A stretch of DNA of 64,000 bases, from contig JAQBRH010000004.1 of the NCBI GenBank assembly GCA_028286565.1, forward strand, positions 217,567 to 281,566, read 5' to 3'. Shown here one piece after another: positions 27,777-40,977 of this stretch. A program made the position numbers and the translations under genes. The notes beneath the pieces are model-generated. The model saw only the letters and a list, made by a program, of their open reading frames with translations, had not been told where the DNA came from and did no database searches. Position 1 is the first letter of the stretch; every line of letters begins with the position of its first letter. The DNA is from Parcubacteria group bacterium (GTDB lineage: Bacteria; Patescibacteriota; Minisyncoccia; Phycocordibacterales; Zambryskibacteraceae).

Positions 27777-28031
27777 ATGGGTTGGTATGTATATATTGCC
27801 AAAGCAAGGACCGGACACTATTACGTCGGAATAACTACAGATCCAGATTCTAGAATAATTAAGCATAATTCTGGGCAGGGTTCTCAGATGGCAAAACAGC
27901 AAGGCCCATTCGAATTGATGTATCGATCAAAAGATTTGGGTAGTAAATCTGTGGCGCGCAAGAGGGAAGTTCAAATAAAAAAGTGGACTAAGGAAAAGAA
28001 AGATAGATTAATAAATGGTGAATGGGCCTAA
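27777..28031 (+). CDS. GIY-YIG nuclease family protein (YhbQ/UPF0213-like)
   Basis: WYVYIAKARTGHYYVGITTDPDSRIIKHNSG is a GIY-YIG core. 84 aa. TATAAT lies 8 nt upstream of the ATG. Confidence 0.7.
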   Translation: MGWYVYIAKARTGHYYVGITTDPDSRIIKHNSGQGSQMAKQQGPFELMYRSKDLGSKSVARKREVQIKKWTKEKKDRLINGEWA

Positions 28032-28061: not shown

Positions 28062-28134
28062 GGTGGCTATGGTGTAACGGTTAACACTCGAGCTTGTGGA
28101 GCTTGCAATCAGGGTTCGATTCCCTGTAGCCACC
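28062..28134 (+). tRNA. tRNA-His (anticodon GTG, with extra 5' G-1)
   Basis: G-1 + acceptor GTGGCTA/TAGCCAC, anticodon stem CGAGC/GCUUG with loop UUGUGGA, T-arm CAGGGTTCGATTCCCTG. Confidence 0.85.
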
Positions 28135-29721
28135 CCTAATGTTTCTTATTCTAATAGTGTCCCTAAAGGATTTATTCTTTTGGGCAAACATCCTTTCATG
28201 AGGGACGGGTTTGTGCTTGTTGCTGAAGCATATGGTCCCTGAGGCCACCAAAGCCTCAATTACAGGGCTTGGAACTGCCGTGACGAGTTTCCGGTTAGCC
28301 ACCTCAAAACGTTCCCAGAATAGGCTTATGTAGATCCTCTTAAGCTCTGGTGGAGCCTCCTGGTAGGACTGACCTATATTCTTGGCAAGGTGAACTATCT
28401 GCTGGATTGTGTCCACTTTGATGTTCCTGCTTTTCTCAAGTTTTATCAGCTCCTCGTCGCAAGTGTAGATTGCTTCTCGCTGCTTAAGTTTGATCCGAGT
28501 GAAGTCGCTATCATCTAGAATGCCGGAGACAAGTTTTTCTTCCGCCACAGCAAGCTTCTGTTCCGCACTAGACTTAACAGCAAGAATCTTTCTTTTCTCT
28601 CGGATAACATCTCGCTTTTTTAGATCATATATAAACTGCACACGGGTAAGTAGCTTTTCAATAAATTCTGGCGAGAATTCAATGCCCGTGAATAGCTCCT
28701 CAACAGCTATCTCAATATCAGCTGCTCTGACGCTGCGATCCTCATCAGAGATGATTCCAGGCTTTTGTTTACTTGTAAGATATGGACGGTAATAGGTCTT
28801 GTCTTTCTTCGGATGAGTTTCTCCTATAAAGCGGAGTCCGCTTACTGAGGAGAATATATATCCCCGCAAGAGGAAGTCGTATTTTCTTCTTCTGCAGGCG
28901 TGGTGATTATGGTCATCGCAGACCTCTTGGCAACGATCAAAGATGTCTTTGGTCGTGAGTGGGGGATGTTTGCCGATTTGCTCCATCTCCCTCCAACGCA
29001 TAATGCCGTAATAGAATGGATTGCGGATAAGTCGTAGTAGATTCGCAACGCTGAGCATCCCGCCAGTTCTCGACACAAGTCCTTTCTTCTTGAGTTCCTC
29101 ACCAAGCTCGAGCATGGAGTAAGAACCGGTTGAATATCTTTGAAAGAGTTCGGTTATAAGAGAACCCTTCATTTCATCCAGAATAATTATTCTCTTGTCT
29201 GGGTTGTCTGGTGCTCCGGCATTGAGATATCCGACAGGAACTTTGGTAACCCACCAGCCATCTCTGAACCTCTGCTCCATACTTTTAATAGTTTTCCTTG
29301 AGGTAATCTGTGACTGGTACTGGTTAATCAACGCTATAACGCCATCTTGCACTTCGCCCTCAATTGATTCATCAAGGCCAGGTTGATTTACCGAAATAAG
29401 CTTTACCCCTTTCCGTTTCAGAAGTGCTTTGATTGAAAGATGATCAAGCATATTTCTCGCAAGTCTATCGGTGTCGAGAACGTATACTGCACCAACCCTT
29501 TCATCTTCTTGAACACGTACAAGCAGTTCTTGTAGTGCGGGTCTGTTGGTATTCCTCGCTGTTTTTCCTAGGTCTTTGTAGACTCCATCCTCAGCCAACT
29601 CATATTCCGTACTGGCTAAGATTGCCTTCTTTGAGAGATCAAGCTGCGTCTGGATAGAGTATCGACCCTCACCGGCCTGTTCCTCAGTAGAAACTCTGCA
29701 GTAGATAAGGGCCTTTTCCAT
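28081..29721 (-). CDS. Large serine recombinase (site-specific integrase)
   Basis: N-terminal resolvase domain ALIYCRVSTEEQ (catalytic Ser), a recombinase domain and a Cys-rich zinc ribbon (CDDHNHHACRRRKYD). 546 aa. The last ~18 codons are antisense to tRNA-His, so the true stop is uncertain. Confidence 0.85.
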   Translation of the reverse strand: MEKALIYCRVSTEEQAGEGRYSIQTQLDLSKKAILASTEYELAEDGVYKDLGKTARNTNRPALQELLVRVQEDERVGAVYVLDTDRLARNMLDHLSIKALLKRKGVKLISVNQPGLDESIEGEVQDGVIALINQYQSQITSRKTIKSMEQRFRDGWWVTKVPVGYLNAGAPDNPDKRIIILDEMKGSLITELFQRYSTGSYSMLELGEELKKKGLVSRTGGMLSVANLLRLIRNPFYYGIMRWREMEQIGKHPPLTTKDIFDRCQEVCDDHNHHACRRRKYDFLLRGYIFSSVSGLRFIGETHPKKDKTYYRPYLTSKQKPGIISDEDRSVRAADIEIAVEELFTGIEFSPEFIEKLLTRVQFIYDLKKRDVIREKRKILAVKSSAEQKLAVAEEKLVSGILDDSDFTRIKLKQREAIYTCDEELIKLEKSRNIKVDTIQQIVHLAKNIGQSYQEAPPELKRIYISLFWERFEVANRKLVTAVPSPVIEALVASGTICFSNKHKPVPHERMFAQKNKSFRDTIRIRNIRGGYRESNPDCKLHKLEC

Positions 29722-29722
29722 A

Positions 29723-29989
29723 TTAGGTTCTTAGTTTTCTCAGTGAATCGATACGCACCTGGTCTGCTTCTAGGAAGGGGACTACTCGTCGATTTTTAAT
29801 CGCTGTGAGTTGATCAATCAGAACATTAATCTCGTTTGCCGATGAGGTCTTATTCTCTATAGCTTTATCCGCTCTTTCTCGAACAAGTTTGGCGTTCTTC
29901 TTTGCTCTTGGAAGTGTAAGTAGAAGCATCAGGAATCCGATTGACACAAACAGGCCCACCACGAGGAATATGAAGATGATTATTAGCAT
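29723..29989 (-). CDS. Small membrane-anchored coiled-coil protein, hypothetical (coupled to integrase start)
   Basis: TM helix MLIIIFIFLVVGLFVSIGFLMLLL, then a charged helical tail. Its stop abuts the integrase ATG. Confidence 0.4.
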   Translation of the reverse strand: MLIIIFIFLVVGLFVSIGFLMLLLTLPRAKKNAKLVRERADKAIENKTSSANEINVLIDQLTAIKNRRVVPFLEADQVRIDSLRKLRT

Positions 29990-30252
29990 GAAGGGAGTAA
30001 CAAGCGGTTAATCCCTTGGTGAGATACAAAAAGCCCACCACGGGTAGAGCCCGAAGGCTCTCGTACCAGTTTCCCGATACGGCAGGTCATGCGACCCCAT
30101 GATGGGTTCTTTGAGCACGACCTGACTTTGAACCATGCCTTTGGATTGCTCCAAAGGGTTAGGTTCCCAACTGTTCCCAGCTGTAAGTTAATTATGCCTA
30201 ATTTCATGGTTTTTGCTATAAGTGATCATTCCGCCCATATATGTCTTTAAAT

Positions 30253-30301
30253 TGCCGATGACTGCCGATAAGAGTCCTAAAACTAGCAATGACTAGCAAT
30301 G
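30253..30301. promoter_or_regulatory. Cluster of short tandem direct repeats (TGCCGATGAC-TGCCGATAAG; ACTAGCAATG-ACTAGCAATG), a candidate operator between the RHH gene and the integrase operon
   Basis: Seen directly at 30253-30272 and 30282-30301; both sets share the ATGACT core. Confidence 0.45.
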
Positions 30302-30312
30302 AGGGAGTCTGG

Positions 30313-30513
30313 CTACATGATTTCTGGTAATGATTCGTCCTGGTACTGCTCTATAATTTTTCGGTGCTTTTCTTGGTTAAATAGCTCTTCTAGTGCCTCG
30401 CTCACTATCTCGCTCATGGTCTTATTAAGATAAGTGGTGGCGATCTTACATAGGCGATGAGCTTTTTTGCTTACCCTTATTTGCCTTACGTAGCTAACTT
30501 GTCGATTTGTCAT
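30313..30513 (-). CDS. Ribbon-helix-helix (CopG/Arc-like) DNA-binding protein, putative regulator
   Basis: RQIRVSKKAHRLCKIATTYLNKTMSEIVSEALEELF is a beta-strand-helix-helix pattern. 66 aa. Confidence 0.5.
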   Translation of the reverse strand: MTNRQVSYVRQIRVSKKAHRLCKIATTYLNKTMSEIVSEALEELFNQEKHRKIIEQYQDESLPEIM

Positions 30514-30737
30514 TTTCTTATGCTTTTGGCTTCTATCTCCCTCATAGCTTTTAAGAGAGGCTATTAATTATTTGGCGGACAGAATGCTACTGTTTCCAAC
30601 CAGTCAAGGTTCTCCTAGGTCCTTGAATTTTTGTCTGGCGAAACGATCACATGTGTTCTTCCTGATGTGCAGGTGAGGTCCCCCGTTGAGAAGCCATTAC
30701 TCAGAGCGGGGACTTGCATCCGCACACCAACAAGTTT

Positions 30738-30911
30738 TCAGCCCAAGTTTTTCAAGAGATGTGCTGACAGCTCTTTCTGCTCACTATGGTTAATCGAAGT
30801 CTTTTCTATCTGAAGAAGAAATAGTTCTGCCAACTGATCAATGAAAAGGTTCTCAGATTTCTCTGTTTTTTCTTTTCTATTGGTCTTTTTAATGGCTTGA
30901 TACTTTTTCAT
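30738..30911 (-). CDS. Small hypothetical protein (uncertain)
   Basis: 58-67 aa helical ORF between the RHH and Zn-ribbon genes. No recognisable domain. Confidence 0.25.
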   Translation of the reverse strand: MKKYQAIKKTNRKEKTEKSENLFIDQLAELFLLQIEKTSINHSEQKELSAHLLKNLG

Positions 30912-31028
30912 ACAACAAAAAAGACCCAGCCAGGAAACCAAACAGGGGTGTTTAGTTACTTGGCTGGGTCCTCTAAGTTCTTGCGAACTTCTATATAACC
31001 CGCACTTCAGCTATGAATGTTCTACGAC

Positions 31029-31280
31029 TTAAATGCTATTCTCTATCTCGCTCTCTGTCAAATCTGCTGTAAACACCCCCTCATTGGGACCAAAGCGGAT
31101 CACCTTCATGCCACCCTCAGTATCTTTTCTAGGTGGATAAACAATAGATATCGTGTGGCATTTCGTGCATCTTATTTTTCTGATATTTTTCTCTCCAAGG
31201 TGTGAGTCGCCCATATAGTGTGCACAGTTCGTGCAGATAATTCTCTTGACCCCGTCTTTATTAAAAGTTTTCTGTTTCAT
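31029..31280 (-). CDS. Zinc-ribbon protein (CxxC-x17-CxxC), hypothetical; immediately downstream of the KAP NTPase
   Basis: CTNCAHYMGDSHLGEKNIRKIRCTKCH. 83 aa. Confidence 0.5.
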   Translation of the reverse strand: MKQKTFNKDGVKRIICTNCAHYMGDSHLGEKNIRKIRCTKCHTISIVYPPRKDTEGGMKVIRFGPNEGVFTADLTESEIENSI

Positions 31281-31305
31281 AAATTGATTATAAATTAATC
31301 AGTAT

Positions 31306-33576
31306 CTAGTACATAGGGTCATTTCTTTTTGGAAAATCTTTCTTGAAGAGTGATATTGCATCTTTTTGATTGTCGGGCAGTTTATCTAATTTCACTTTAT
31401 CTATTGTGGTTTTGATGTAATCGAGATCAAAAAATTCTTTGAGTGATGAAAATGATATTCTCGGTATTTGTTCAGTAATCATGCCAGATGATCTGAGAGA
31501 TATTGTTTTAAACTTTGATACAAACTCAGCCAAAGCAAGTCTGCTCTTTTTATAAGTATTAACAAAAGTCCTCATATCTTTTTCACCACCCCATTCCTTC
31601 CATCTATATAAAATGTAGACAAGGTTTTCTTGTTTTTTTAGAGATCCGTCTTTATATGCTTTATTTATTTTCTTAAGACCTTCCTTCGATAGCTCTGTTA
31701 TTTCTAGATTATCAAATAATTTTTCTCGGCCGGAAGATTCTTTTTCAGGTCTGGGGAAGTACGAGGAAATAAGGTGGATAGCCCCATATAAGGATTTAGT
31801 TTTTCGGATAGCTTCTCTGCTCGGTTCAAATATGGAAATTTCCCTATCTTTCAATGATTTTAGATAGAAATGGATTACCCTCATAAGATCTGTCTCGGCT
31901 CCGAAATCAAACATCTGATGGGACTTTATACCTGACACCTCATCTGCAATATCCAATAGAACAGTTAAGGTCTGAGCGATCTTATTTCCCTCGGTAGGGA
32001 ATTCTTTTACGTGATCTAGGATCGTAGTGAGAAACTTCCTGATGTCTTTCTTCTTGTCTTGAGTTTTGAGATAGCCGTGCAGCAGAGCAGAAAATTGTTT
32101 GTAGTCTCTAACTTTTTCTAGTGCTGAAGTAATCTCAGACGACCGCATCTCACCCTCAGGGACATTCAAGAAGAAGTAGGTATCAAAATGATCAGCTGAA
32201 CAAATCCTTCTATTCTGCCGCCACTCTTGTTCAATGGTATCGCCCATTGAGTAGTTCTCGAGCACCGATTTAAGGGGAGGGAAGAGTTCGACAAGAAAAT
32301 CTTTAATAAATGGATCAACTTTAACTAACTCAATTCCAATATTTTTCCTTATTTCATCAAGCCTTTTTGATTGATAGTCTCTATGATGGTTTAGCGTAGT
32401 GAACTCCTCTTTATTGTTAGATATGTAATTGTATAAATCAGGATAGAAGTGTTCGAGGGTTCTTATTCCGAGAAAATCAACAGGATCCACCTCGCTTGAT
32501 ATTAAGCTTGCCGCCATCGTCATTTGGCTCAGTGGCCTCTTGATTATTCTGAGATTCCCTCTTTTAAGAAAAGCTTTACCTAAGCCAGAATGATATAGTG
32601 TTGCCCATCTATTTTTATCCCATTTGCTTTCGGAGAAAAACTTTATCAGTTCGTCTAATTGAGCGAATAAGAATTCAGACAATTTTTTGTCATCAGCTTT
32701 TGGAAGCGAGATGGGAATTTGCACAATTTTCTCAATATATTCCATTCCCTCAATACCGTCCTTACTTATCATTTTTCCTACGGTGCCTACGTCCATAACC
32801 ATAAGATATATAAGATTTGGAAGATCTAAATTGATTTTTACTAGTTGGAATAGATTTCTTACCTCCTCCGGCGTGAGACGATCTATATCATCTATAATGA
32901 ACAGAATTTTGCGATCTCTTTTAGATAAAGTCTCTCTAATATCATTCTTTAGTTGGTTAAGCGTTTTCTCTGTTAAAGAAGATTTTTTCTTATAGAAATC
33001 CTCAGCCATAGATACAAGCCCTTCGATAAAGGTAAGAGATTCTAAAATTAAAATAAGAATTATTGTTCCTACGTAGGCGATAGGGCTAAATGCAAAAATT
33101 TTATCTAGTATCACAACTCCCGTAAGCCCAAGAATTGGGAGCCATAGCCTGATAATAGGAAGAAAAGCTTTGTCTTTGATTTTAGTTATTGTTCCTAAAT
33201 ACAATTTTACAAGACCAAGCTGCCTAGCTATTTCCTTGTCTATTTCATTATTTTTCTGTCCCAGCTCTTTACCAACCTCTAATAGAAAATTCTGGACCAA
33301 GTCTCCTTGGTTGGAGAATATCCAAGGGTTAAACTCTATAATTGTTGGGATCTTGTCCTGATCGATATCCTCCTCAAATTTATCAGGGTGATTATAAAAA
33401 TCTTTAATGAAATTGACGACAGAGGTCTTTCCATCACCCCATTTTGCATATAAACCAATTACAAGACTGTCGGAGTCCTTCCAAGATAGGATGTCTTTTG
33501 CGATACGCTTAGCAAAGCCTTTTCGGCCAAGGAGGTCTTCCTCAACTGTCTCTACCGCTTTATCAGAAAAAGCCAT
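31306..33576 (-). CDS. KAP-family P-loop NTPase (membrane-inserted NTPase domain)
   Basis: Walker A GLYAKWGDGKTSV, two TM helices inserted after the P-loop (LPIIRLWLPILGLTGVVIL / IAYVGTIILILILESL), Walker B ILFIIDDIDRL, and a long helical C-terminus. 756 aa. Confidence 0.8.
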   Translation of the reverse strand: MAFSDKAVETVEEDLLGRKGFAKRIAKDILSWKDSDSLVIGLYAKWGDGKTSVVNFIKDFYNHPDKFEEDIDQDKIPTIIEFNPWIFSNQGDLVQNFLLEVGKELGQKNNEIDKEIARQLGLVKLYLGTITKIKDKAFLPIIRLWLPILGLTGVVILDKIFAFSPIAYVGTIILILILESLTFIEGLVSMAEDFYKKKSSLTEKTLNQLKNDIRETLSKRDRKILFIIDDIDRLTPEEVRNLFQLVKINLDLPNLIYLMVMDVGTVGKMISKDGIEGMEYIEKIVQIPISLPKADDKKLSEFLFAQLDELIKFFSESKWDKNRWATLYHSGLGKAFLKRGNLRIIKRPLSQMTMAASLISSEVDPVDFLGIRTLEHFYPDLYNYISNNKEEFTTLNHHRDYQSKRLDEIRKNIGIELVKVDPFIKDFLVELFPPLKSVLENYSMGDTIEQEWRQNRRICSADHFDTYFFLNVPEGEMRSSEITSALEKVRDYKQFSALLHGYLKTQDKKKDIRKFLTTILDHVKEFPTEGNKIAQTLTVLLDIADEVSGIKSHQMFDFGAETDLMRVIHFYLKSLKDREISIFEPSREAIRKTKSLYGAIHLISSYFPRPEKESSGREKLFDNLEITELSKEGLKKINKAYKDGSLKKQENLVYILYRWKEWGGEKDMRTFVNTYKKSRLALAEFVSKFKTISLRSSGMITEQIPRISFSSLKEFFDLDYIKTTIDKVKLDKLPDNQKDAISLFKKDFPKRNDPMY

Positions 33577-33654
33577 AAGGCCATACTACATGAGGAGTTT
33601 GGAATTACCACACGCAAGCTTCTCTTTTGTTCTATCGAGGTATATTCTGGCTAT

Positions 33655-33966
33655 ATGAAAAAGGTTGTTGTATATGTGCCCCTAACCCACACCGATCAAG
33701 TTCGGGAGGCTATCGGGCAGGCTGGAGGCGGGCAGCTCGGGAAGTACGCCTTCTGTAGCTTCTCTACACGGGGTATAGGGCGTTTTAAGCCTCTGGAAGG
33801 GGCTAACCCTCATATTGGCTTTGTGGGTCAAATGGAGGCTGTAGAGGAAGAAAGAATCGAGGTTTCCGTGGAAGATAGTCTGGTGGAGAGTGTGATATCC
33901 GCCATTAAAAAGGTACATCCGTACGAGGAAGTGGCTTTGGACATATATAATTTAGAGCAAGTATGA
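33655..33966 (+). CDS. Small PII/CutA-like (Nif3 C-terminal-like) protein
   Basis: 103 aa. The C-terminal HPYEEVALDIYNLE resembles the Nif3/CutA HPYE(E/V)P motif, with a beta-alpha-beta pattern. The call is tentative. Confidence 0.4.
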   Translation: MKKVVVYVPLTHTDQVREAIGQAGGGQLGKYAFCSFSTRGIGRFKPLEGANPHIGFVGQMEAVEEERIEVSVEDSLVESVISAIKKVHPYEEVALDIYNLEQV

Positions 33967-34595
33967 AAATCACCAAACTTGGTCATTGCTGCCTACTGCT
34001 AGAAACTAAGGGCCAGAGAATTCTTACAGACCCAGGTAGCTATACCGTAGACGCACATTCTCAACTCACAAACGTCGATTACATTTTGTATACCCACGAG
34101 CATCAGGATCATTACCACCTTGAGTCATTGAAAGTGCTTATTGGAAAAAATCCACAAGCAATTATCTACACTAATGATTCCGTAAGTGAGCTTCTTACCA
34201 AAGAGGGAATAGCTCACACGCTTGTCCGGAACGGAGAAGCGGTATCTCTCGGGGAAATTTCTGTGGTTGGTATTGGTGAAGAACACGCCCAAATGCACAG
34301 CTCGATACCTTTATCGTCCAACATTGGTTTCCTAATTGATGAGAGATTATGGTATCCAGGCGATGCCTTCACTAATCCAGAAAGAGAGATAGAGATCCTC
34401 GCCCTTCCCGTGTCTGGCCCGTGGATGAAGATAGGTGAGGCAATAGATTACGCATTTCTTCTTAAGCCTAAAAAAGCTTTTCCGGTTCATGATGGTACAC
34501 GTTTTGGATCTGCACATAATCTCCCCGCGAAGCTTCTTCCGGCGAATGGCATCGAGTTTGTAGTAATGGCTGAGGGTGACAGCAGGGAATTCTAA
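33963..34595 (+). CDS. Metallo-beta-lactamase-fold hydrolase
   Basis: HEHQDH (HxHxDH) zinc motif, a downstream His, and the WYPGD...PVHDG motif. Confidence 0.75.
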   Translation: MKITKLGHCCLLLETKGQRILTDPGSYTVDAHSQLTNVDYILYTHEHQDHYHLESLKVLIGKNPQAIIYTNDSVSELLTKEGIAHTLVRNGEAVSLGEISVVGIGEEHAQMHSSIPLSSNIGFLIDERLWYPGDAFTNPEREIEILALPVSGPWMKIGEAIDYAFLLKPKKAFPVHDGTRFGSAHNLPAKLLPANGIEFVVMAEGDSREF

Positions 34596-34608
34596 TATAA
34601 TCAAAACC

Positions 34609-35295
34609 ATGACTGAACTTGAAAGGAATTTCCAAAAATTTAAGAAGATTACAAGAGAAGAGTTCTTTATTGCTGAAGAAATTAAAAAGCATGTTGAGAT
34701 TAAAGATACTGATACGATTTTGGATGTCGGCTGTGCTGATGGTAATCTCTCAAAGTCATTAACTAAAGACTCAACAAACATTACATTTCTAGATGTTGAT
34801 GAGTTTAATTTCTCTCCTCAGGAGAAATTTATCCGCTCTTCGTTTGAGGAGGTAGAGTTAGGCGAGAAGTTTGATCTGATTTTAAGTTCGCATGTCTGGG
34901 GACACTTCTACAGGAACAACACCTTTGGTTTCTGCTTTAAGAAAGCCCATGATCTGCTCAAAGAAGGCGGAAAGCTGATCGTGGTGCATAACTCTAATAA
35001 AGACTTTACCGGGAAGCTCATCGAATTCTCGAAGACATTATTCGATCAAATAGAGTTCGATGTCTTTCTCGATGAGTTCTTAGAAGGTGCAGATTATGAG
35101 GAATCCTACTTCGATGTGAATTTGAAAGCGGAAACATTCAGAGAACTGGCAGAACTTGTCCAGGTATTATTGGTTGTTCCAGATGCTATCTATTACTCGA
35201 AGATCGAAGAGATGACCCGCTTCTTAGAAGCTAATCTGGAAAAACCGGAGTTCGCTATTAATCAAAGACTTTTAGTAATAAAGAAGAAAGGTTAG
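34609..35295 (+). CDS. Class I SAM-dependent methyltransferase
   Basis: Motif I ILDVGCADGNLS. I chose the ATG at 34609, 7 nt after a TATAAT box; the ORF-track start at 34576 is in frame and overlaps the upstream gene. Confidence 0.7.
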   Translation: MTELERNFQKFKKITREEFFIAEEIKKHVEIKDTDTILDVGCADGNLSKSLTKDSTNITFLDVDEFNFSPQEKFIRSSFEEVELGEKFDLILSSHVWGHFYRNNTFGFCFKKAHDLLKEGGKLIVVHNSNKDFTGKLIEFSKTLFDQIEFDVFLDEFLEGADYEESYFDVNLKAETFRELAELVQVLLVVPDAIYYSKIEEMTRFLEANLEKPEFAINQRLLVIKKKG

Positions 35296-35312
35296 GCGAA
35301 TGAGGCTATAAA

Positions 35313-36206
35313 ATGACTTACGACAATAATTGGTTCAAACAACGGGCTCTTAATTCTTTCCGCAGGATAGGTCCTAACGTCTGGGATTATTCTGATTCTT
35401 TACTTCTTTATATTTCTTCAGGAGTGGAGAAATACGAATCTCTACAAGAGGAGGATACTCCTTATTTTAAGTTAGTGATTAAACCAGAACGCGAATATTT
35501 AGAATCAATAGCAAAGGATGTTATTAACGCCTTACCTTCGAATTTTGAGTATGTTGATCTTGGTCCAGGCACTGAACACAAGGAACAATTCTTTTTCGAT
35601 GAGCTTAAGAAGCAGGGGAAGAAGTTTACTTATATTCCTGTAGATATTAGCGAGCATTACCTCAAGCTGGCTGAACAACACGCTATCGATCAAGGCATTC
35701 CTGTCAGCACAATACAGTCTTCTTTTGAAGAAGCGGCTGAAGTATTAGGAGAAGGAAGCGTGCCACGCTTTGTAAATATTGGGCTCACTTTCTCTAACTA
35801 TGAACCTCAGGTAATTCTAAAACTACTTAAAACTATTGCAGGCAAGGGAGGGTTCGTTTTTATCAATAGCCAAATGAGAGATAGGTTAGATATAAATAGT
35901 TTACAACGAGTATATGCAGAAGATGCTTTGACTTTGGCGGACGATAAACTCAAGCTAGTCGGTTTAGATCCTAATGCTGATGTGACCCCAAGAAAAGCAG
36001 ATGATGCTATTAAGGTATGGTGTTCAGTTATTAAGCCCTCTCTCGATCTTGAGACGATTGGAGTTGTGGAGGGCGATAAATTGCTTGTTTTTCAATCCCT
36101 CCGATATACACCAGAGAAGCTTAAGGAAGAACTAGAAAAAGCTTCGGAGAACTATCAAGTGTTTGATACAGGTGCTTCTTTCATTGCTGGGTTAATCAAA
36201 ACCTAA
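35313..36206 (+). CDS. EgtD-like (Methyltransf_33/DUF323) SAM-dependent methyltransferase
   Basis: YVDLGPGTEHKEQFFFDEL, YIPVDISEHYL and NIGLTFSNYEP resemble the EgtD-family motifs (ELGSGSSxKTR, VPVDVS, GSTIGN). Confidence 0.5.
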   Translation: MTYDNNWFKQRALNSFRRIGPNVWDYSDSLLLYISSGVEKYESLQEEDTPYFKLVIKPEREYLESIAKDVINALPSNFEYVDLGPGTEHKEQFFFDELKKQGKKFTYIPVDISEHYLKLAEQHAIDQGIPVSTIQSSFEEAAEVLGEGSVPRFVNIGLTFSNYEPQVILKLLKTIAGKGGFVFINSQMRDRLDINSLQRVYAEDALTLADDKLKLVGLDPNADVTPRKADDAIKVWCSVIKPSLDLETIGVVEGDKLLVFQSLRYTPEKLKEELEKASENYQVFDTGASFIAGLIKT

Positions 36207-36447
36207 ACCAAAGCAGGGAAGGAGGAAATAAAATCCAGCTTCTCTTTTACTCCTTCCAGGTATATTCTGTCGGAGAAGATATCCAGAATAATTTTCCTAT
36301 CGGGACCCAAATTTGCGAAGCTAATTTGGCGTAGGCTACAGGGAATCGAAAGACGGAGGCGCGAAGCCGATCCAGCAGGATCGCAGCCGAGTCGGGGTCG
36401 CGGAAATTTTCTGCCGAAAATTATCCGTGCCCGATGAACCCCTTATT

Positions 36448-36531
36448 CTGTAGCCACCCAAATTTTTAGGCCTATAAATAAAGGTAGTTTTTGGTACCCA
36501 GATGGGGATTAGAACCTGATATACTCACAAG
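36448..36531 (+). repeat. Cassette boundary/promoter module R1 (att-like CTGTAGCCACCC + ACCCAAATTTTT + GATATACT -10 box 6 nt before the ATG)
   Basis: It is related to R2 at 38172-38276 (~80% identity over 75 bp). Confidence 0.55.
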
Positions 36532-37248
36532 ATGAAAGAGGATATTTATTTTGAAAGTGGAAGTCTTAAACTTGTTGGCACTTTATATAAAGCGCCTAAG
36601 GAGAAAGCCTCAGCGCTTTTAATTGCAGGAGGGGGGAACACCCATCGACACAAAGGATATTATCCTCCGTGGCAAAACTTTCTTTTGGAGAACGGAGTCA
36701 CAACATTCAACTTTGATTTTCGAGGGGTAGGAGATGCAGAAGGAAATTTAAATGAAAGCAATCTAAATACAAGAGCAGAAGATGCGAAAGCTGCCCTTGA
36801 AATTCTGAAGCAACATTCTGATACAGAAAATATATTTGTAGTCGGTGTAAGCATGGGCGGGCCTGTGGCGATAAGGATAGTAGATCATTCAATTAAAGGA
36901 ATGCTTCTGGTTGTTGCCGCTGCATATTCAATGGAAGCGCGAGATAAGAATTTTGGCCCCGAGTTTTCAGAAGCGATACGAAAACCAGACAGCTGGAAAG
37001 ATTCACCTGATTTTAAAGACTTAGAGAGATACATGGGCGACACATTTTTGCTATATACGGATAGTGATGAAGTAGTTCCTCAGGGTATAAGTTTGAACTA
37101 CGAAGAGATCATAAAAGCAAAAGGGGGACAGGTGCTTGCCCTTAAGGATGCCAACCATCGAACCTGGAAGGAAGGGCAACAAGAATATGCCTTAAGGGAG
37201 ATGTCGAATTTTATCCTTGAGAAGAGCCTATCAAAGGTATACTCATGA
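36532..37248 (+). CDS. Alpha/beta-hydrolase fold protein
   Basis: Nucleophile elbow GVSMGG, then a downstream Asp and His (DSDEVV...ANH). 238 aa. Confidence 0.7.
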   Translation: MKEDIYFESGSLKLVGTLYKAPKEKASALLIAGGGNTHRHKGYYPPWQNFLLENGVTTFNFDFRGVGDAEGNLNESNLNTRAEDAKAALEILKQHSDTENIFVVGVSMGGPVAIRIVDHSIKGMLLVVAAAYSMEARDKNFGPEFSEAIRKPDSWKDSPDFKDLERYMGDTFLLYTDSDEVVPQGISLNYEEIIKAKGGQVLALKDANHRTWKEGQQEYALREMSNFILEKSLSKVYS

Positions 37249-37625
37249 GTATGATAAGTTTCATTTTAAATCTTCCTTGGACTATTCTCGGTGTATTGGC
37301 AGGGATTGTGTCGATACCTAAAAAGTTTCAAGGCAATAAAAATCCTTTCGCTTTAGTATTTACTGTAAAAAGTTTCTGGTGGTATACATGGCAACCCAAG
37401 ATGAGGGGAGCGCGAGCTATGACGATAGGGCATGTGGTTCTTTTGAGCCCAAATATTTTGGAGCACGATCTAGAACATGAACTTATACACGTAGAGCAAG
37501 CTGTGCGTATTCCACTTATACATCCAGTTCTCTATGCAATCGAAAGTTTTAGGAAGGGCTATCGAGAGAATAAATACGAAAAGGAAGCTTATGGTAGGGC
37601 AGGAAACATTTATATAGAAAAATGA
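37245..37625 (+). CDS. Small membrane-anchored HExxH zincin-like protein (paralog A)
   Basis: N-terminal TM, WWYTW, then LEHDLEHELIHVEQ (HExxH plus a downstream Glu). Its start overlaps the upstream stop (ATGA). Its 3' ~360 bp are ~98% identical to 38918-39275. Confidence 0.6.
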   Translation: MSMISFILNLPWTILGVLAGIVSIPKKFQGNKNPFALVFTVKSFWWYTWQPKMRGARAMTIGHVVLLSPNILEHDLEHELIHVEQAVRIPLIHPVLYAIESFRKGYRENKYEKEAYGRAGNIYIEK

Positions 37626-38173
37626 CTGAAAAAGAAATTCTCAAGCTTATCCAAGAGGACTCATGGATGATGGAGACTTTACGTAAAGCAGAAAGTTTGA
37701 ATTTAAAAGATTGGGCTATTGGAGCGGGATTCATTCGAAATAAGATTTGGGATCACCTTCATGGATATACGGAAAGAGAATGGGGGAGCAGCGATGTGGA
37801 TCTGGTCTATTTTGATGAAGATGATAAGGGTGAGGAATATGATGAGAAGTTGTCTGAGAAGTTAAAGAGTGAGACAGGGACCAATTGGGAAGTGGTAAAT
37901 GAGCACCATGCTCACGTATGGAATAAGATTCCGCCTTACACTTCCGTTGAGGATGCAATTTCAAAGTTCCCTGAGACTGTAACCGCTATAGGTGTTCGCA
38001 TAAGAAATGAAGAAATAGAACTGATTACACCCTATGGAATTGAAGATAACGTGAGCATGATCATCCGACCAACGCCCATATTTGAAGACAAGATGGATAA
38101 GATCCGTGAGAGGGTGGCAAAGAAGGGTTGGATGGAAAAATGGCCTAAACTAAAGTATGCGGAGACCGAATAA
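37622..38173 (+). CDS. Nucleotidyltransferase-fold protein (minimal NTase, PF06042-like)
   Basis: GAGFIRNKIWD...SSDVDLVYFD, i.e. the G[GS] and DxD motifs of the Pol-beta superfamily. It is translationally coupled to the HExxH gene (ATGA overlap). Confidence 0.55.
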   Translation: MTEKEILKLIQEDSWMMETLRKAESLNLKDWAIGAGFIRNKIWDHLHGYTEREWGSSDVDLVYFDEDDKGEEYDEKLSEKLKSETGTNWEVVNEHHAHVWNKIPPYTSVEDAISKFPETVTAIGVRIRNEEIELITPYGIEDNVSMIIRPTPIFEDKMDKIRERVAKKGWMEKWPKLKYAETE

Positions 38174-38276
38174 AGTTCTAAACCCATCCACCCACCGACC
38201 CAAATTTTTTCAGGGCTATAAATAAGGTTAGTTTTTGCTACCCAGATGGGAATTTAGAAATGATATACTGAATTCT
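38172..38276 (+). repeat. Cassette boundary/promoter module R2 (AGTTCTAAACCCATCCACCCACCGACCCAAATTTTTT...GATATACT)
   Basis: Shares the AGTTCTAAACCCATCC boundary with R3, and the ACCCAAATTTTT..TATAAATAA..GTTAGTTTTTG..TACCCAGATGGG block with R1. Confidence 0.55.
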
Positions 38277-38810
38277 ATGAAAAGATTTTCAATCGTGATT
38301 CTTGTTCTCGTAGGTTTGAGCGCGGGTTACTGGTATAAAACCGGACATGTCGCACTGCAACCGGCGCTGTGGAAATCTGTTTGGATAGGTACAACGTACC
38401 CCCCGCTCTCTAATGGATTGTCTAGCAACGGCGCGCTCACAGTTGGAGACGCAAGATATGCCACATATGTTATAGACGAGATGAAAACTCCAGACGGCAC
38501 CGAACTATGGTTAGCAAGCATGGTAAAGGGAGTGAACGGAAAGCCTATTTTTACCGTTACTGACGCCCTACCTTTTTTCTCTGGCGCTGATGAAAACGGA
38601 AATATGTCGATTTGGGGAGTATGCGGTTATTCGCCTGACAAAGTACTTAATATCGATAATTCAATTGTCGCTCAGATAAGTGCCAGAGACTATGTATCCA
38701 GTGGGCCCATTAATGCAAAGAAAGCATGGAAGGCGAATAATGCCACTGGAAAATTTGAGTCGATTCCGCCAGTAGGAATCTCCTGTATTAATGAAGGAGG
38801 GCAGGAGTGA
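38277..38810 (+). CDS. Membrane-anchored/secreted hypothetical protein
   Basis: Start at MKRFSIVILVLVGLSAGYWYK, an anchor resembling that of gene 40405. No domain recognised. Confidence 0.45.
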   Translation: MKRFSIVILVLVGLSAGYWYKTGHVALQPALWKSVWIGTTYPPLSNGLSSNGALTVGDARYATYVIDEMKTPDGTELWLASMVKGVNGKPIFTVTDALPFFSGADENGNMSIWGVCGYSPDKVLNIDNSIVAQISARDYVSSGPINAKKAWKANNATGKFESIPPVGISCINEGGQE

Positions 38811-38830
38811 TAAAACACTCCCTTCATTCG

Positions 38831-38900
38831 AAACTAGTTCTAAACCCATCCGCCCGACGACCCGGTTTTCAATCTGTCGACCCAGGGGTATACTCTGAGT
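38831..38900 (+). repeat. Cassette boundary/promoter module R3 (AGTTCTAAACCCATCCGCCCGACGACCCGGTTTTCAATCTGTCGACCCAGGGGTATACT)
   Basis: Nearly identical to R4 at 40349-40404; the TATACT box lies 6 nt before the ATG. Confidence 0.55.
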
Positions 38901-39275
38901 ATGATAAGTTTCGTTTTAAATCTTCCTTGGACCATTCTTGGTGTATTGGCTGCTATTGTTTCAATGCCTAATAAGTTTCGTACTAACCCGAGCCCTTTCG
39001 CTTTGGTATTTACTGTAAAAAGTTTCTGGTGGTATACATGGTTACCAAAGAGGAAAGGAGCACGAGCCATGGCGATAGGGCGTGTGGTTCTTTTGGGCCC
39101 AAATATTTTGGAGCACGATCTAGAGCATGAACTTATACACGTAGAGCAAGCTGCGCGTATTCCACTTATACATCCAGTTCTCTATGCAATCGAAAGTTTT
39201 AGGAAGGGCTATCGAGAGAATAAATACGAAAAGGAAGCTTATGGTAGGGCAGGAAACATTTATATAGAAAAATGA
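38901..39275 (+). CDS. Small membrane-anchored HExxH zincin-like protein (paralog B)
   Basis: MISFVLNLPWTILGVLAAIVSMP...LEHDLEHELIHVEQ. The C-terminal half is nearly nucleotide-identical to paralog A. Confidence 0.6.
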   Translation: MISFVLNLPWTILGVLAAIVSMPNKFRTNPSPFALVFTVKSFWWYTWLPKRKGARAMAIGRVVLLGPNILEHDLEHELIHVEQAARIPLIHPVLYAIESFRKGYRENKYEKEAYGRAGNIYIEK

Positions 39276-39829
39276 ACGAAGATCTTGTTTACATCGACCA
39301 ATACGGCCTCCTTGGTAGTAATTTCTATTGGCACCATAGAGCGGATAAGGGACTGTCTGATCAAGATCTGATCGAAGCCGAACTGACTAATGATCGAGTG
39401 TTGGTGCACAGAGATATTATCGATAAATTAATTTCGATAGATAAAGAATTCCAGAAGAGGGGGTATAGGCTCTATATCAAAGAAGGATACCGTTCAAAAA
39501 AGCTCTACGAGATGATCTACAAGCGACGGGTAGAAATGTTCGGCAAAGAGGAAACAGATAGACTCTTGAACATGAAGGATATGCCGCATTCTTTTGGCAA
39601 GTCTATTGATGTATCCCTGAGAGATATTACCGGTACAGAAGAAGTGCCAATGCGTAACAAGGCGGATGGGACCGGTGCTTTATTTATTAATTTCTATAAA
39701 GGCAAGGAAGACGAACAAAGTAAGAAGTATCAAGAGCTGCAAGATTTTGTGCTTTCAGTAATGCGTGCTCATGGATTTAAGCTTGGAACTAAGAACGAAT
39801 ATTTCCACTTTGATCACAAAGAGTTCTAA
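39272..39829 (+). CDS. Peptidase M15 (VanY/D-Ala-D-Ala carboxypeptidase-like, LAS zinc-binding) family protein
   Basis: PHSFGKSIDVS (H-x2-G-x-S-I-D) and EYFHFDH (second His), as in VanX/VanY. It is coupled to the HExxH gene (ATGA overlap). Confidence 0.55.
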   Translation: MNEDLVYIDQYGLLGSNFYWHHRADKGLSDQDLIEAELTNDRVLVHRDIIDKLISIDKEFQKRGYRLYIKEGYRSKKLYEMIYKRRVEMFGKEETDRLLNMKDMPHSFGKSIDVSLRDITGTEEVPMRNKADGTGALFINFYKGKEDEQSKKYQELQDFVLSVMRAHGFKLGTKNEYFHFDHKEF

Positions 39830-39865
39830 ATTCATCTCCGCGGGGGTATACTTCTTCTCAATCAT

Positions 39866-40333
39866 ATGGATGTACACGTAAGGCGATCTAGGAACGGGCA
39901 GGGCATTTTTGCAAATAGAGATTTTTCTGCACAAGAAGTTATATATGAAGTGAAAGGAAAATTGATCACATGTGGCGAAGATGAGGATATCGATCAGAGG
40001 GTCCGGGATAATACATTTAGATTCGACAAAGAGAAATATCTAAGTCCGGAAGGCGAATTGGGCGATTTCCAGAATCATTCGTGCGAACCGAATGCCGGAG
40101 TTTTCAAAAGTAAGAAAAAACTTTTTATTAAGGCGATTAAAAATATTAAAGAAGGCAAAGAGATCCTTATAGACTATTCCACGATCCTTGCTACAGACGA
40201 CACCTGGACGATGAAATGTAATTGCGGAAGCGCAAACTGCAGGGGGATCATAAAGAAATTCAAGAATATACCAAAAGTAACCAAAGAAAAGTATCTCGCC
40301 TTAGGTATTGTCCCAGAGTACATCTTAAATTAA
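39866..40333 (+). CDS. SET-domain protein (putative protein lysine methyltransferase)
   Basis: NHSCEPN, EILIDYS (ELxxDY) and the post-SET Cys cluster CNCGSANCRG. It has its own GGGGGTATACT promoter box at 39842-39852. Confidence 0.75.
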   Translation: MDVHVRRSRNGQGIFANRDFSAQEVIYEVKGKLITCGEDEDIDQRVRDNTFRFDKEKYLSPEGELGDFQNHSCEPNAGVFKSKKKLFIKAIKNIKEGKEILIDYSTILATDDTWTMKCNCGSANCRGIIKKFKNIPKVTKEKYLALGIVPEYILN

Positions 40334-40348
40334 GGCGGCCCTCATTTC

Positions 40349-40404
40349 ATCATCCGTCCGACGACCCGGTTTTCAATCTGTCGACCCGGGGGTATACTTT
40401 AGGC
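40349..40404 (+). repeat. Cassette boundary/promoter module R4
   Basis: CATCCGTCCGACGACCCGGTTTTCAATCTGTCGACCCGGGGGTATACT; 52 of 55 nt match R3. Confidence 0.55.
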
Positions 40405-40977
40405 ATGAAAAAACAACAAGGATTTGCCACCCCCCTTACGCTGGGGTTACTAGTAGTTTTGCTTGTGGGAGGGGGGTATTATTGGATGAATCACAGGTCT
40501 TCTTCGAATTCTCCGGCCAAGACGCTCAGCATAACCGCCTCGGACTGGAGCACCTACAAATGGATGGGAATCGAACCGACGCATATTTCCTTTGCAGAGG
40601 CGGCGACTCCCGCTCTTGCCATCACGGGGTGGAAAGGTTTTGTGGATTTTAATTCAGACGGTCCGGCGGGGAACCTGAGAGTTGAAACTTTTCAAAAAAC
40701 AAATTCTGAAAAGGACTTTCCTTCATATGTAGCGGCCAACATGGGGATCTTTGAGTCAGTGAAGTTTTTCCAAGTCGCGGGCCACGATGCAGCAAGGATA
40801 CGACACGCATCCAAAGATCAATACGACGCGGACGTCGCCTGGTACTTCATAGATGCGGGCGATAAGTCTATCATTGCCATCTCTACCAGCGGAGACAGCA
40901 TGTATCTCTACGACGATGATCAAAACGGCATGTCATCAAGGGATAGGTACATCGCCGGGTACCAGCCTGCGAAGTAA
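40405..40977 (+). CDS. Membrane-anchored/secreted hypothetical protein
   Basis: N-terminal anchor LLVVLLVGGGYYW, then a soluble domain with no recognised fold. 190 aa. Confidence 0.45.
   Translation: MKKQQGFATPLTLGLLVVLLVGGGYYWMNHRSSSNSPAKTLSITASDWSTYKWMGIEPTHISFAEAATPALAITGWKGFVDFNSDGPAGNLRVETFQKTNSEKDFPSYVAANMGIFESVKFFQVAGHDAARIRHASKDQYDADVAWYFIDAGDKSIIAISTSGDSMYLYDDDQNGMSSRDRYIAGYQPAK

Follow-up and report, generated by a model that had tools for sequence, protein, structure and literature searches.

What does a KAP-family NTPase gene do beside a serine integrase in the genome of a Parcubacterium, and do its small neighbors belong to the same system? The question is raised by positions 30,253 to 33,576 of a 64,000-nucleotide stretch of DNA, which as a whole is referred to as the window. 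The window is part of a metagenome-assembled genome of the Parcubacteria group, and its KAP protein is 100% identical to JWN89_632, encoded on a 308-kb contig. The original prediction for this locus joined the KAP gene, a zinc-ribbon gene, and a ribbon-helix-helix (RHH) gene into one defense module, with the RHH protein regulating the integrase via tandem 10-bp repeats. Our analysis leads to another reading, which we consider probable: the KAP gene would be a single-gene defense cargo on an integrative island inserted at tRNA-His, and the integrase operon of this island would be gated by an RNA of the LOOT family. A conserved KAP/zinc-ribbon/RHH module is wrong and should not be carried forward.

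The KAP gene (31306..33576, minus strand) encodes 756 amino acids (aa) and was characterized by Pfam, PADLOC, hydropathy, BLASTP, and alignment. Its product matches the Pfam family KAP_NTPase (PF07693) over residues 18-351 with 142.3 bits against a cut-off of 20 (expectation value, E, 2.5e-41). The Walker A motif is AKWGDGKT at residues 44-51, and the Walker B motif is LFIIDD at residues 225-230. W46, G47, G49, K50, D229, and D230 are invariant in the alignment with 16 homologs, F-type PifA included. Two hydrophobic segments are located between the motifs at residues ~137-192; they are a hydropathy estimate only, from 19-residue Kyte-Doolittle windows that exceed 1.6 and start at residues 137-173. 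The predicted architecture, a 756-aa KAP NTPase with Walker A and B split by two transmembrane helices, is borne out to this extent, and the Walker motifs, whose lack had been named as a reason to give the proposal up, are intact. More than 200 full-length relatives of about 750 aa were found at 99% coverage, and they are scattered sporadically over many phyla.

The relation of this protein to PifA was then inspected, taking as reference the 741-aa T7 exclusion protein of an IncF plasmid, whose gene adjoins pifC. The PADLOC model for PifA (PDLC02361) matches residues 4-741 of the window protein on positions 7-712 of its 720 (E 8.4e-76, 254 bits). BLASTP against F-type PifA itself aligns residues 5-308 only, with 25% identity (E 5e-21). 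Since the identity is this low and confined to these residues, the KAP protein is best classed as a distant PifA-like KAP NTPase and not as a PifA orthologue. The two have in common that they are KAP P-loop NTPases of 741 and 756 aa with invariant Walker residues, that the PADLOC PifA model extends over the full length, and that both are borne on mobile elements. They differ in that the window protein has a longer insert between its Walker motifs, of clearly hydrophobic character, and in that no pifC repressor gene lies beside the window KAP gene. The carriers differ as well, being a serine-integrase island in a Patescibacterium here and a conjugative plasmid for PifA. Tmn (a YobI-type transmembrane NTPase) and QatA resemble the KAP protein as P-loop NTPases with membrane segments or in having a KAP-like domain. 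PADLOC returned no Tmn match for the KAP protein, and its QatA models gave partial matches confined to the NTPase core (1.7e-12 and 9.8e-07). QatB, QatC, and QatD are absent nearby and the adjoining open reading frames (ORFs) have no PADLOC matches, so the gene is not assigned to a QatABCD system.

The premise that prokaryotic KAP NTPases are functionally uncharacterized is outdated. The F-plasmid protein PifA excludes phage T7, and four diverse KAP NTPases encoded beside small serine recombinases confer phage protection of up to 6 logs, which needs Walker B and an unannotated C-terminal region (PMC13552941, 2026). The window protein resembles these proteins, which come from the RADS pipeline, in its transmembrane helices, one of them within the NTPase domain, in its long C-terminal region without known domain, in its linkage to a serine recombinase, and in being a single-gene system. 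It differs in that the window recombinase is a large serine integrase (546 aa) targeting a tRNA gene, and in that this gene is 1.6 kb from KAP with LOOT and small ORFs between them. The suggestion that the KAP gene is a plausible defense or abortive-infection gene on an integrative element agrees with the full-length PADLOC match, with a few neighbors of defense or mobile-element type at homologous loci, and with the precedent of PMC13552941. The functional cargo would be one gene, coding for a PifA-like KAP NTPase whose hairpin between the two Walker motifs anchors it in the membrane. To judge by the analogy with PifA and with the KAP defense proteins tested recently, this NTPase most likely works on its own: on sensing the phage, it would stop infection at the membrane through NTP hydrolysis and its conserved C-terminal region of ~450 residues. 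The gene is a new, distant member of a known single-gene defense class, now in a Patescibacterium.

The loci of the nine closest KAP homologs (43-63% identity) were fetched, and the genes 3' of KAP differ at nearly every one of them. Specifically, a convergent SIR2 gene abuts KAP at the closely related loci L001 and L004; at other loci unrelated proteins of 321, 329, and 263 aa are encoded; and at L194 KAP is followed by two tiny ORFs, a NERD protein, and an HTH_3/Peptidase_M78 pair of the ImmA/IrrE type. A few of the neighbors are of defense or mobile-element type, namely SIR2, NERD, mREase_II (a methyl-directed restriction enzyme), and HTH_3/Peptidase_M78. A conserved downstream partner of any kind was sought by all-against-all BLAST of the neighbors and rejected, the only genes linked being the near-identical SIR2 genes of L001 and L004. 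JGI (Joint Genome Institute) metagenomes, searched for further close KAP relatives, yielded no more than a single contig with two distant paralogues (27-28% identity). Two side observations concern these loci. At L006 (3305-4270, minus strand) and L007 (2916-3905, plus strand), the proteins adjoining KAP have no family match, and R-x4-H motifs of the kind seen in HEPN nucleases (RNRLIH and RSDFFH) are visible by eye. At L001 (5905-8301) and L002 (5237-8268), in two related genomes, KAP is located just 3' of a tRNA gene, with uvrA-uvrC-ddl as conserved surroundings; here the defense gene seems to have a second hotspot of insertion.

These data also bear on whether the KAP NTPase is an antiphage protein at all. 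It might have another membrane-linked role for the element or the cell, such as competitor exclusion, signaling, or scaffold assembly. This would fit the remark of the authors of PMC13552941 that PifA may have a primary role other than phage exclusion, the confinement of F-type PifA similarity to the NTPase domain, and the conserved uvrA-uvrC-ddl-tRNA context of the L001 and L002 gene. Such a role is nonetheless improbable in our judgment, given the full-length match to the PADLOC PifA model, the protection of up to 6 logs by four KAP NTPases (PMC13552941), and the changing neighbors of KAP at its various loci, a few being of defense or mobile-element type, along with the sporadic phyletic spread. 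We thus retain antiphage defense as the preferred reading of the KAP gene.

We then inspected the proposed partners of KAP. The zinc-ribbon gene (31029..31280, minus strand; JWN89_631), identified as an ORF from its sequence, encodes an 83-aa CxxC...CxxC protein and begins 25 bp past the KAP stop, both as predicted. Pfam assigns it no family above threshold. A hairpin followed by a T-run (30914..30979, minus strand), found as an inverted repeat in the sequence and conserved as DNA in L190, is likely the terminator of the KAP/zinc-ribbon transcript. Because of the 25-bp spacing and this shared terminator, KAP and the zinc-ribbon gene are predicted to be co-transcribed in this genome. Conservation elsewhere tells against a dedicated pair. 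The zinc-ribbon protein has only two homologs in 5.8 billion clusters: the one in L190 follows a helix-turn-helix gene, and after the one in L191 come a small ORF and the N-terminus of a serine recombinase, which shares 74% identity with the window recombinase over 19 residues. KAP is absent near both homologs. Conversely, tblastn at the nine closest KAP loci found no homolog of the zinc-ribbon, RHH, 57-aa, or 88-aa ORF at any of the nine. The zinc-ribbon and RHH genes were hence rejected as conserved KAP partners, and the outcome that the original prediction had itself set beforehand as its refutation, that either would not be conserved beside KAP homologs, is what these loci show for both. 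The zinc-ribbon ORF would belong to the backbone of the integrase element and would not be a dedicated partner of KAP.

What, then, is the element that carries KAP? The GC content of the window is 0.36-0.46 over 28-41 kb and 0.50-0.58 in both flanks, and because of this difference the KAP region is placed inside a foreign island. A tRNA-His gene (28063..28136, plus strand; found by ARAGORN, Rfam tRNA 60.9 bits), which overlaps the ORF at 28081-29721, is the integration site and the left end of the island. Further inside, local alignment and sequence inspection located 3'-end fragments of tRNA-His at 36334..36459, an inverted 17-mer (36334-36350) and the direct 12-mer CTGTAGCCACCC (36448-36459). 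They bracket a GC-rich segment of ~100 nt within the low-GC island. A clean direct repeat was looked for as the right end of the island, and only these short fragments were found. The region 36334-36459 is possibly the right junction (attR) of an ~8.4-kb element, or else the scar of an earlier integration, and the arrangement points to an ~8.4-kb element with older accretions beyond it, as far as ~41 kb. The whole would be a low-GC integrative island of at least 8.4 kb, possibly 13 kb, inserted at tRNA-His of a Parcubacteria (Patescibacteria) genome, with the 30-33 kb stretch forming its cargo and regulatory end. The island resembles those of tRNA-targeting phage and island integrases in having the integrase gene at its end, abutting a complete tRNA gene, and partial tRNA copies further inside.

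Some observations on the island and its border are added here. At 33600-40900 (plus strand), small genes are separated by repeated intergenic modules that end in ...GGGGTATACT or AGGTATATTCTG a few bases 5' of the start codons; they could represent either recurrent promoters of near-leaderless mRNAs or junctions between cassettes. The low-GC stretch also holds one gene in duplicate, the copies at 37246-37630 and 38896-39280 being 88-94% identical. Just outside the island, between tRNA-Leu and tRNA-His, an ORF at 27777-28031 (plus strand) encodes an 84-aa stand-alone GIY-YIG nuclease domain (Pfam 1.8e-13).

The ORF overlapping tRNA-His (28081..29721, minus strand) is the serine integrase that had been noticed to adjoin the KAP region, and it proves to be a large serine recombinase of 546 aa, named Recombinase by the depositors. 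It matches Pfam Resolvase at residues 4-155 (2.5e-23), Pfam Recombinase at residues 187-267 (9e-12), and PHROG 95 'integrase' (6.7e-69). Its size and its resolvase and recombinase domains are those of large serine recombinases (~450-600 aa); the recombinase zinc-ribbon subdomain is absent among the Pfam matches with E up to 0.1. Over its final 56 nt, the gene overlaps tRNA-His on the opposite strand. Upstream of the integrase, an 88-aa ORF with a hydrophobic N-terminus (29723..29989, minus strand; JWN89_630, from the ORF list and an exact database look-up) has its stop 1 nt before the integrase start codon, and because of this 1-nt distance the two are regarded as one operon.

Between the repeats and this operon, the window carries a feature overlooked by the original prediction, a full-length LOOT RNA (Rfam RF03000) followed by a terminator. 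The 120-nt LOOT (30046..30165, minus strand) scores 85.5 bits against a gathering threshold of 46.4 and covers positions 1-121 of the 121-position model. LOOT was described from marine metagenomes and has a presumed trans-acting role; to our knowledge, it has been given no organism, and few ORFs were noted near it. The searchable literature, where LOOT figures only for its structure, was found to assign it neither an organism nor a function. The window copy and the Rfam structure served to build a covariance model, in place of a structure that RNAalifold had derived from three MAFFT-aligned LOOT copies and that was mis-registered. GTDB genomes were scanned with a LOOT-specific DNA pattern independently of KAP, yielding 80 loci (L103-L182) in off-centre 8-kb windows, and every one of these carries a full-length LOOT. 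By name, 65 of the 80 belong to Patescibacteria lineages, nine are unclassified, and six bear other names. Some genomes have two copies. A looser DNA pattern applied to viral contigs gave 80 loci as well, all of them false positives by covariance search.

The neighborhoods of LOOT are recurrent. A large serine recombinase gene is present in 38 of the 80 loci, and LOOT is on the 5' side of this gene in 42 of 43 gene copies, either divergent (often 105-166 bp apart) or, as in the window, co-directional. Across LOOT from the recombinase, the 83 LOOT entries, which include the window, L003, and L006 and count L151 twice for its two copies, show genes for a ParB-methylase (24), a TerS-like protein (19), and TerL (10; PHROG 38, 4.4e-75). 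Many LOOT elements are regarded as prophages because of these genes. Two of the nine homologous KAP loci have LOOT: in L003 it adjoins an operon with a serine recombinase, and in L006 a tyrosine integrase is close by. Since KAP occurs in LOOT loci only at the three KAP-derived ones, LOOT travels with the integrase backbone rather than with KAP. A 4333-bp unit is repeated in tandem in L151 (1703-8000), a Saccharibacteria contig, and is 99.98% identical to the whole contig L120 (4569 bp), binned as Nomurabacteria. It contains a 158-aa ORF, a 68-aa ORF, LOOT, a zinc-ribbon membrane protein, a 230-aa ORF, and a 596-aa serine recombinase, and may be a minimal LOOT-integrase mobile element. LOOT, found almost exclusively in Patescibacteria assemblies, proves to be a signature of the mobile elements of this clade. 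The full-length match and the same six helices, with strong covariation, tie these copies to RF03000; they differ from the Rfam description in lying in Patescibacteria, by serine integrases and phage packaging genes, and directly 5' of membrane-protein genes with a terminator that competes with helix P4.

The tRNA overlap seen in the window recurs among these elements. Eight of 32 full-size LOOT-linked recombinase genes, the window's included, end 12-60 nt inside an antisense tRNA gene, and seven tRNA species are concerned (window, L120, L127, L148, L164, L172, L175, and L176; tRNAs His, Glu, Asp, Asn, Lys twice, Ala, and Gln). Because the recombinase genes end inside tRNA genes, LOOT is placed within the element and the tRNA gene is taken as the insertion site. 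LOOT was thus rejected as the attachment site, the visible element ends being the tRNA gene and LOOT occurring twice in some genomes and in the tandem mini-element. It was likewise rejected as a guide RNA of the integrase, as cognate LOOT/tRNA pairs at eight loci are no better than non-cognate ones. Classic tRNA-inserting integrases are tyrosine integrases; here the enzyme is instead a large serine recombinase whose coding 3' end reaches 12-60 nt into the antisense tRNA gene. These data point to a subgroup of tRNA-targeting serine integrases with the putative attachment site within the coding end of the integrase gene.

How could LOOT act on the genes behind it? The next gene is on the same strand in 75 of 78 LOOT loci and starts within 150 nt in 69 of the 78, most often at 55-60 nt. 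Of these 69 close genes, 59 encode a transmembrane segment, and the 88-aa ORF of the window sits in the corresponding place. A T-run is located at most 45 nt 3' of LOOT in 72 of 78 loci, and the bases just 5' of it are complementary to 'AAAG' and to part of P4, namely its 5' strand and loop. In the window this terminator strand is the 3' tail ACCCGUGGUGGGCUUUUU (30028..30045, minus strand), with a terminator-like site at 30048-30034. In the duplex test on 70 loci, cognate tail/P4 duplexes average -22.7 kcal/mol versus -15.1 for tails swapped between loci; the median rank of the cognate pair is 4%, and it is ~50% for two control LOOT regions. All six Rfam helices covary over 83 sequences, with 94.4% paired and a score of 0.663 versus 0.18 for shuffles and 0.05-0.09 for slid controls, and P4 covaries in six of its six pairs. 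LOOT has the layout of an attenuator or riboswitch, because in front of a co-directional gene there are two conserved helices that exclude each other, one being a terminator.

From this conserved anatomy and covariation, LOOT and its terminator would most likely be a cis-acting transcription attenuator. The backbone of the element would comprise a large serine integrase gene whose 3' end overlaps a tRNA, preceded by LOOT, an intrinsic terminator, and a small membrane-protein gene; LOOT would gate the membrane-protein gene and the coupled integrase, which in the window are the 88-aa ORF and the 546-aa recombinase. In its general form, the proposal is that LOOT is a riboswitch-like attenuator of Patescibacteria prophages and integrative elements, in which the P1-P6 core competes with a terminator built from P4 and gates a variable membrane-protein gene and, in some elements, the serine integrase. 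We put this forward tentatively, with confidence just short of even. LOOT might instead be a trans-acting small RNA (sRNA) of the element, for instance for immunity or copy control, the terminator ending its transcript and the membrane gene being expressed separately. Its Rfam type is Gene; sRNA, each copy has a -10-like box on its 5' side and a T-run on its 3' side, and LOOT lies between the integrase and packaging genes, where prophages keep lysogeny and immunity functions. However, an independent sRNA would not be expected to have a co-directional ORF starting within 150 nt, as 69 of 78 loci do; the terminator stem draws on the 5' strand and loop of P4, an internal helix that covaries, and this is the usual layout of attenuators and riboswitches; and no target complementarity to the neighboring tRNA or attachment region was found. 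An sRNA is therefore a serious but rather unlikely alternative in our view, and cis attenuation is kept as the working proposal.

LOOT offers another control route for the integrase operon than the predicted one by an RHH protein and repeats, whose parts were also inspected. Of the two sets of 10-bp tandem direct repeats that had been described, one holds up: the exact tandem ACTAGCAATG x2 (30281..30300; CATTGCTAGT x2 on the minus strand), ~135 nt upstream of LOOT, is the sole exact 10+10 tandem in the window, where 0.02 is expected, and is thus non-random. The second, TGCCGATGAC/TGCCGATAAG (30251..30270), seen in the sequence as an imperfect tandem, matches at only 8 of 10 positions and is at chance level, as 15 tandems with at most two mismatches were found in the window versus 16 expected. 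The reverse complement of this imperfect tandem is ATTGCCGATG/ACTGCCGATA, which shares ATTGC with the exact tandem and so creates an arrangement of two direct and two inverted copies. At an equal distance from its LOOT, L003 carries TTGCTAAC x2 and, after it, inverted copies of the TAGCA type. Tandem 10-11-bp repeats in a comparable position, 100-180 nt 5' of LOOT, were found in 12 of 81 LOOT loci versus 3 of 65 control regions. The repeats look like operator sites near a LOOT promoter. Exact or near-exact 10-11-bp tandems, TTGTTGGTAAC x2 and AATCCGACAC x2, were also observed between a divergent integrase gene and LOOT in L117 and L154 (~105-115 nt 5' of LOOT) and in L137 (~97 nt); their sequence is unlike the window's and their position similar.

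The RHH protein itself fares worse. The 66-aa ORF given this name (30313..30513, minus strand) is not next after the zinc-ribbon gene, as had been stated, and instead lies 515 bp from it, past the terminator-like hairpin and a 57-aa ORF (30738..30911, minus strand; from the ORF list, without family assignment and uncalled by the depositors). The RHH label derives from matches that are all below threshold: the best Pfam match is RH3_dom (E 0.0043, 17.6 bits against a cut-off of 27), followed by 56B_RHH (E 0.016), and a PHROG Arc-like match has E 0.0061. A full HMMER scan of 1.84 billion representatives found no homolog, and a word-indexed search returned no match, the ORF itself included. A single-sequence AlphaFold monomer is one helix at residues 3-59 with a predicted local distance difference test score of 87.8, to be read with the fact that the RHH strand forms only in dimers. 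The gene calls of the depositors omit the ORF. The RHH identity was rejected on the lack of homologs, the sub-threshold profiles, and the single-helix model, and the 66-aa ORF is an orphan of doubtful reality as a gene.

These results allow the composite proposal to be weighed, that KAP, zinc-ribbon, and RHH genes form one dedicated defense module whose RHH protein binds the 10-bp repeats and controls the integrase. The 25-bp distance and common terminator of the first two genes speak for it, as do the non-random ACTAGCAATG tandem, the excess of such tandems in front of LOOT, and the weak Arc/RHH-like matches of the ORF (E 0.004-0.016). But both small genes are absent at all nine closest KAP loci, zinc-ribbon homologs are not beside KAP, a terminator and another ORF separate the zinc-ribbon gene from the RHH ORF, the latter has no homolog, no gene call, and a single-helix model, and L003 has similar repeats without any RHH homolog. 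We regard the composite proposal as very improbable.

Several points weigh against our own reading, a single-gene KAP defense cargo on a tRNA-His island whose integrase operon is gated by LOOT. All of it is computational. The nine KAP loci are a small sample, several of them on short contigs, and the C-terminal halves of the KAP protein and F-type PifA gave no BLASTP alignment. The predicted co-transcription leaves room for a local functional link between KAP and the zinc-ribbon gene. Reconstruction of the excised form did not settle the right end of the island, which is not proven. LOOT is present at three of ten KAP loci, the window included, so that a link beyond chance between KAP and LOOT elements may exist. 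As for the gating, the recombinase is divergent from LOOT in 33 of 43 gene copies, and LOOT is therefore no general regulator of integrases; a stable terminated transcript is just as compatible with the trans-acting sRNA type that Rfam gives to LOOT.

In terms of its first formulation, the value of the finding is mainly corrective, in that there is no three-gene module. The KAP gene is of interest for being in a Patescibacterium, a clade whose immunity is very little known. The large serine integrases that overlap tRNA genes may interest those who mine integrases as tools for genome engineering. Of everything in the region, the LOOT-integrase backbone is of greatest interest. The fixed relations of LOOT to a serine integrase, a downstream membrane gene, and a competing terminator lead to a concrete experimental question, and if the attenuator is true, an orphan RNA class would be assigned to a host clade and a genetic context and would have a mechanism that can be tested.

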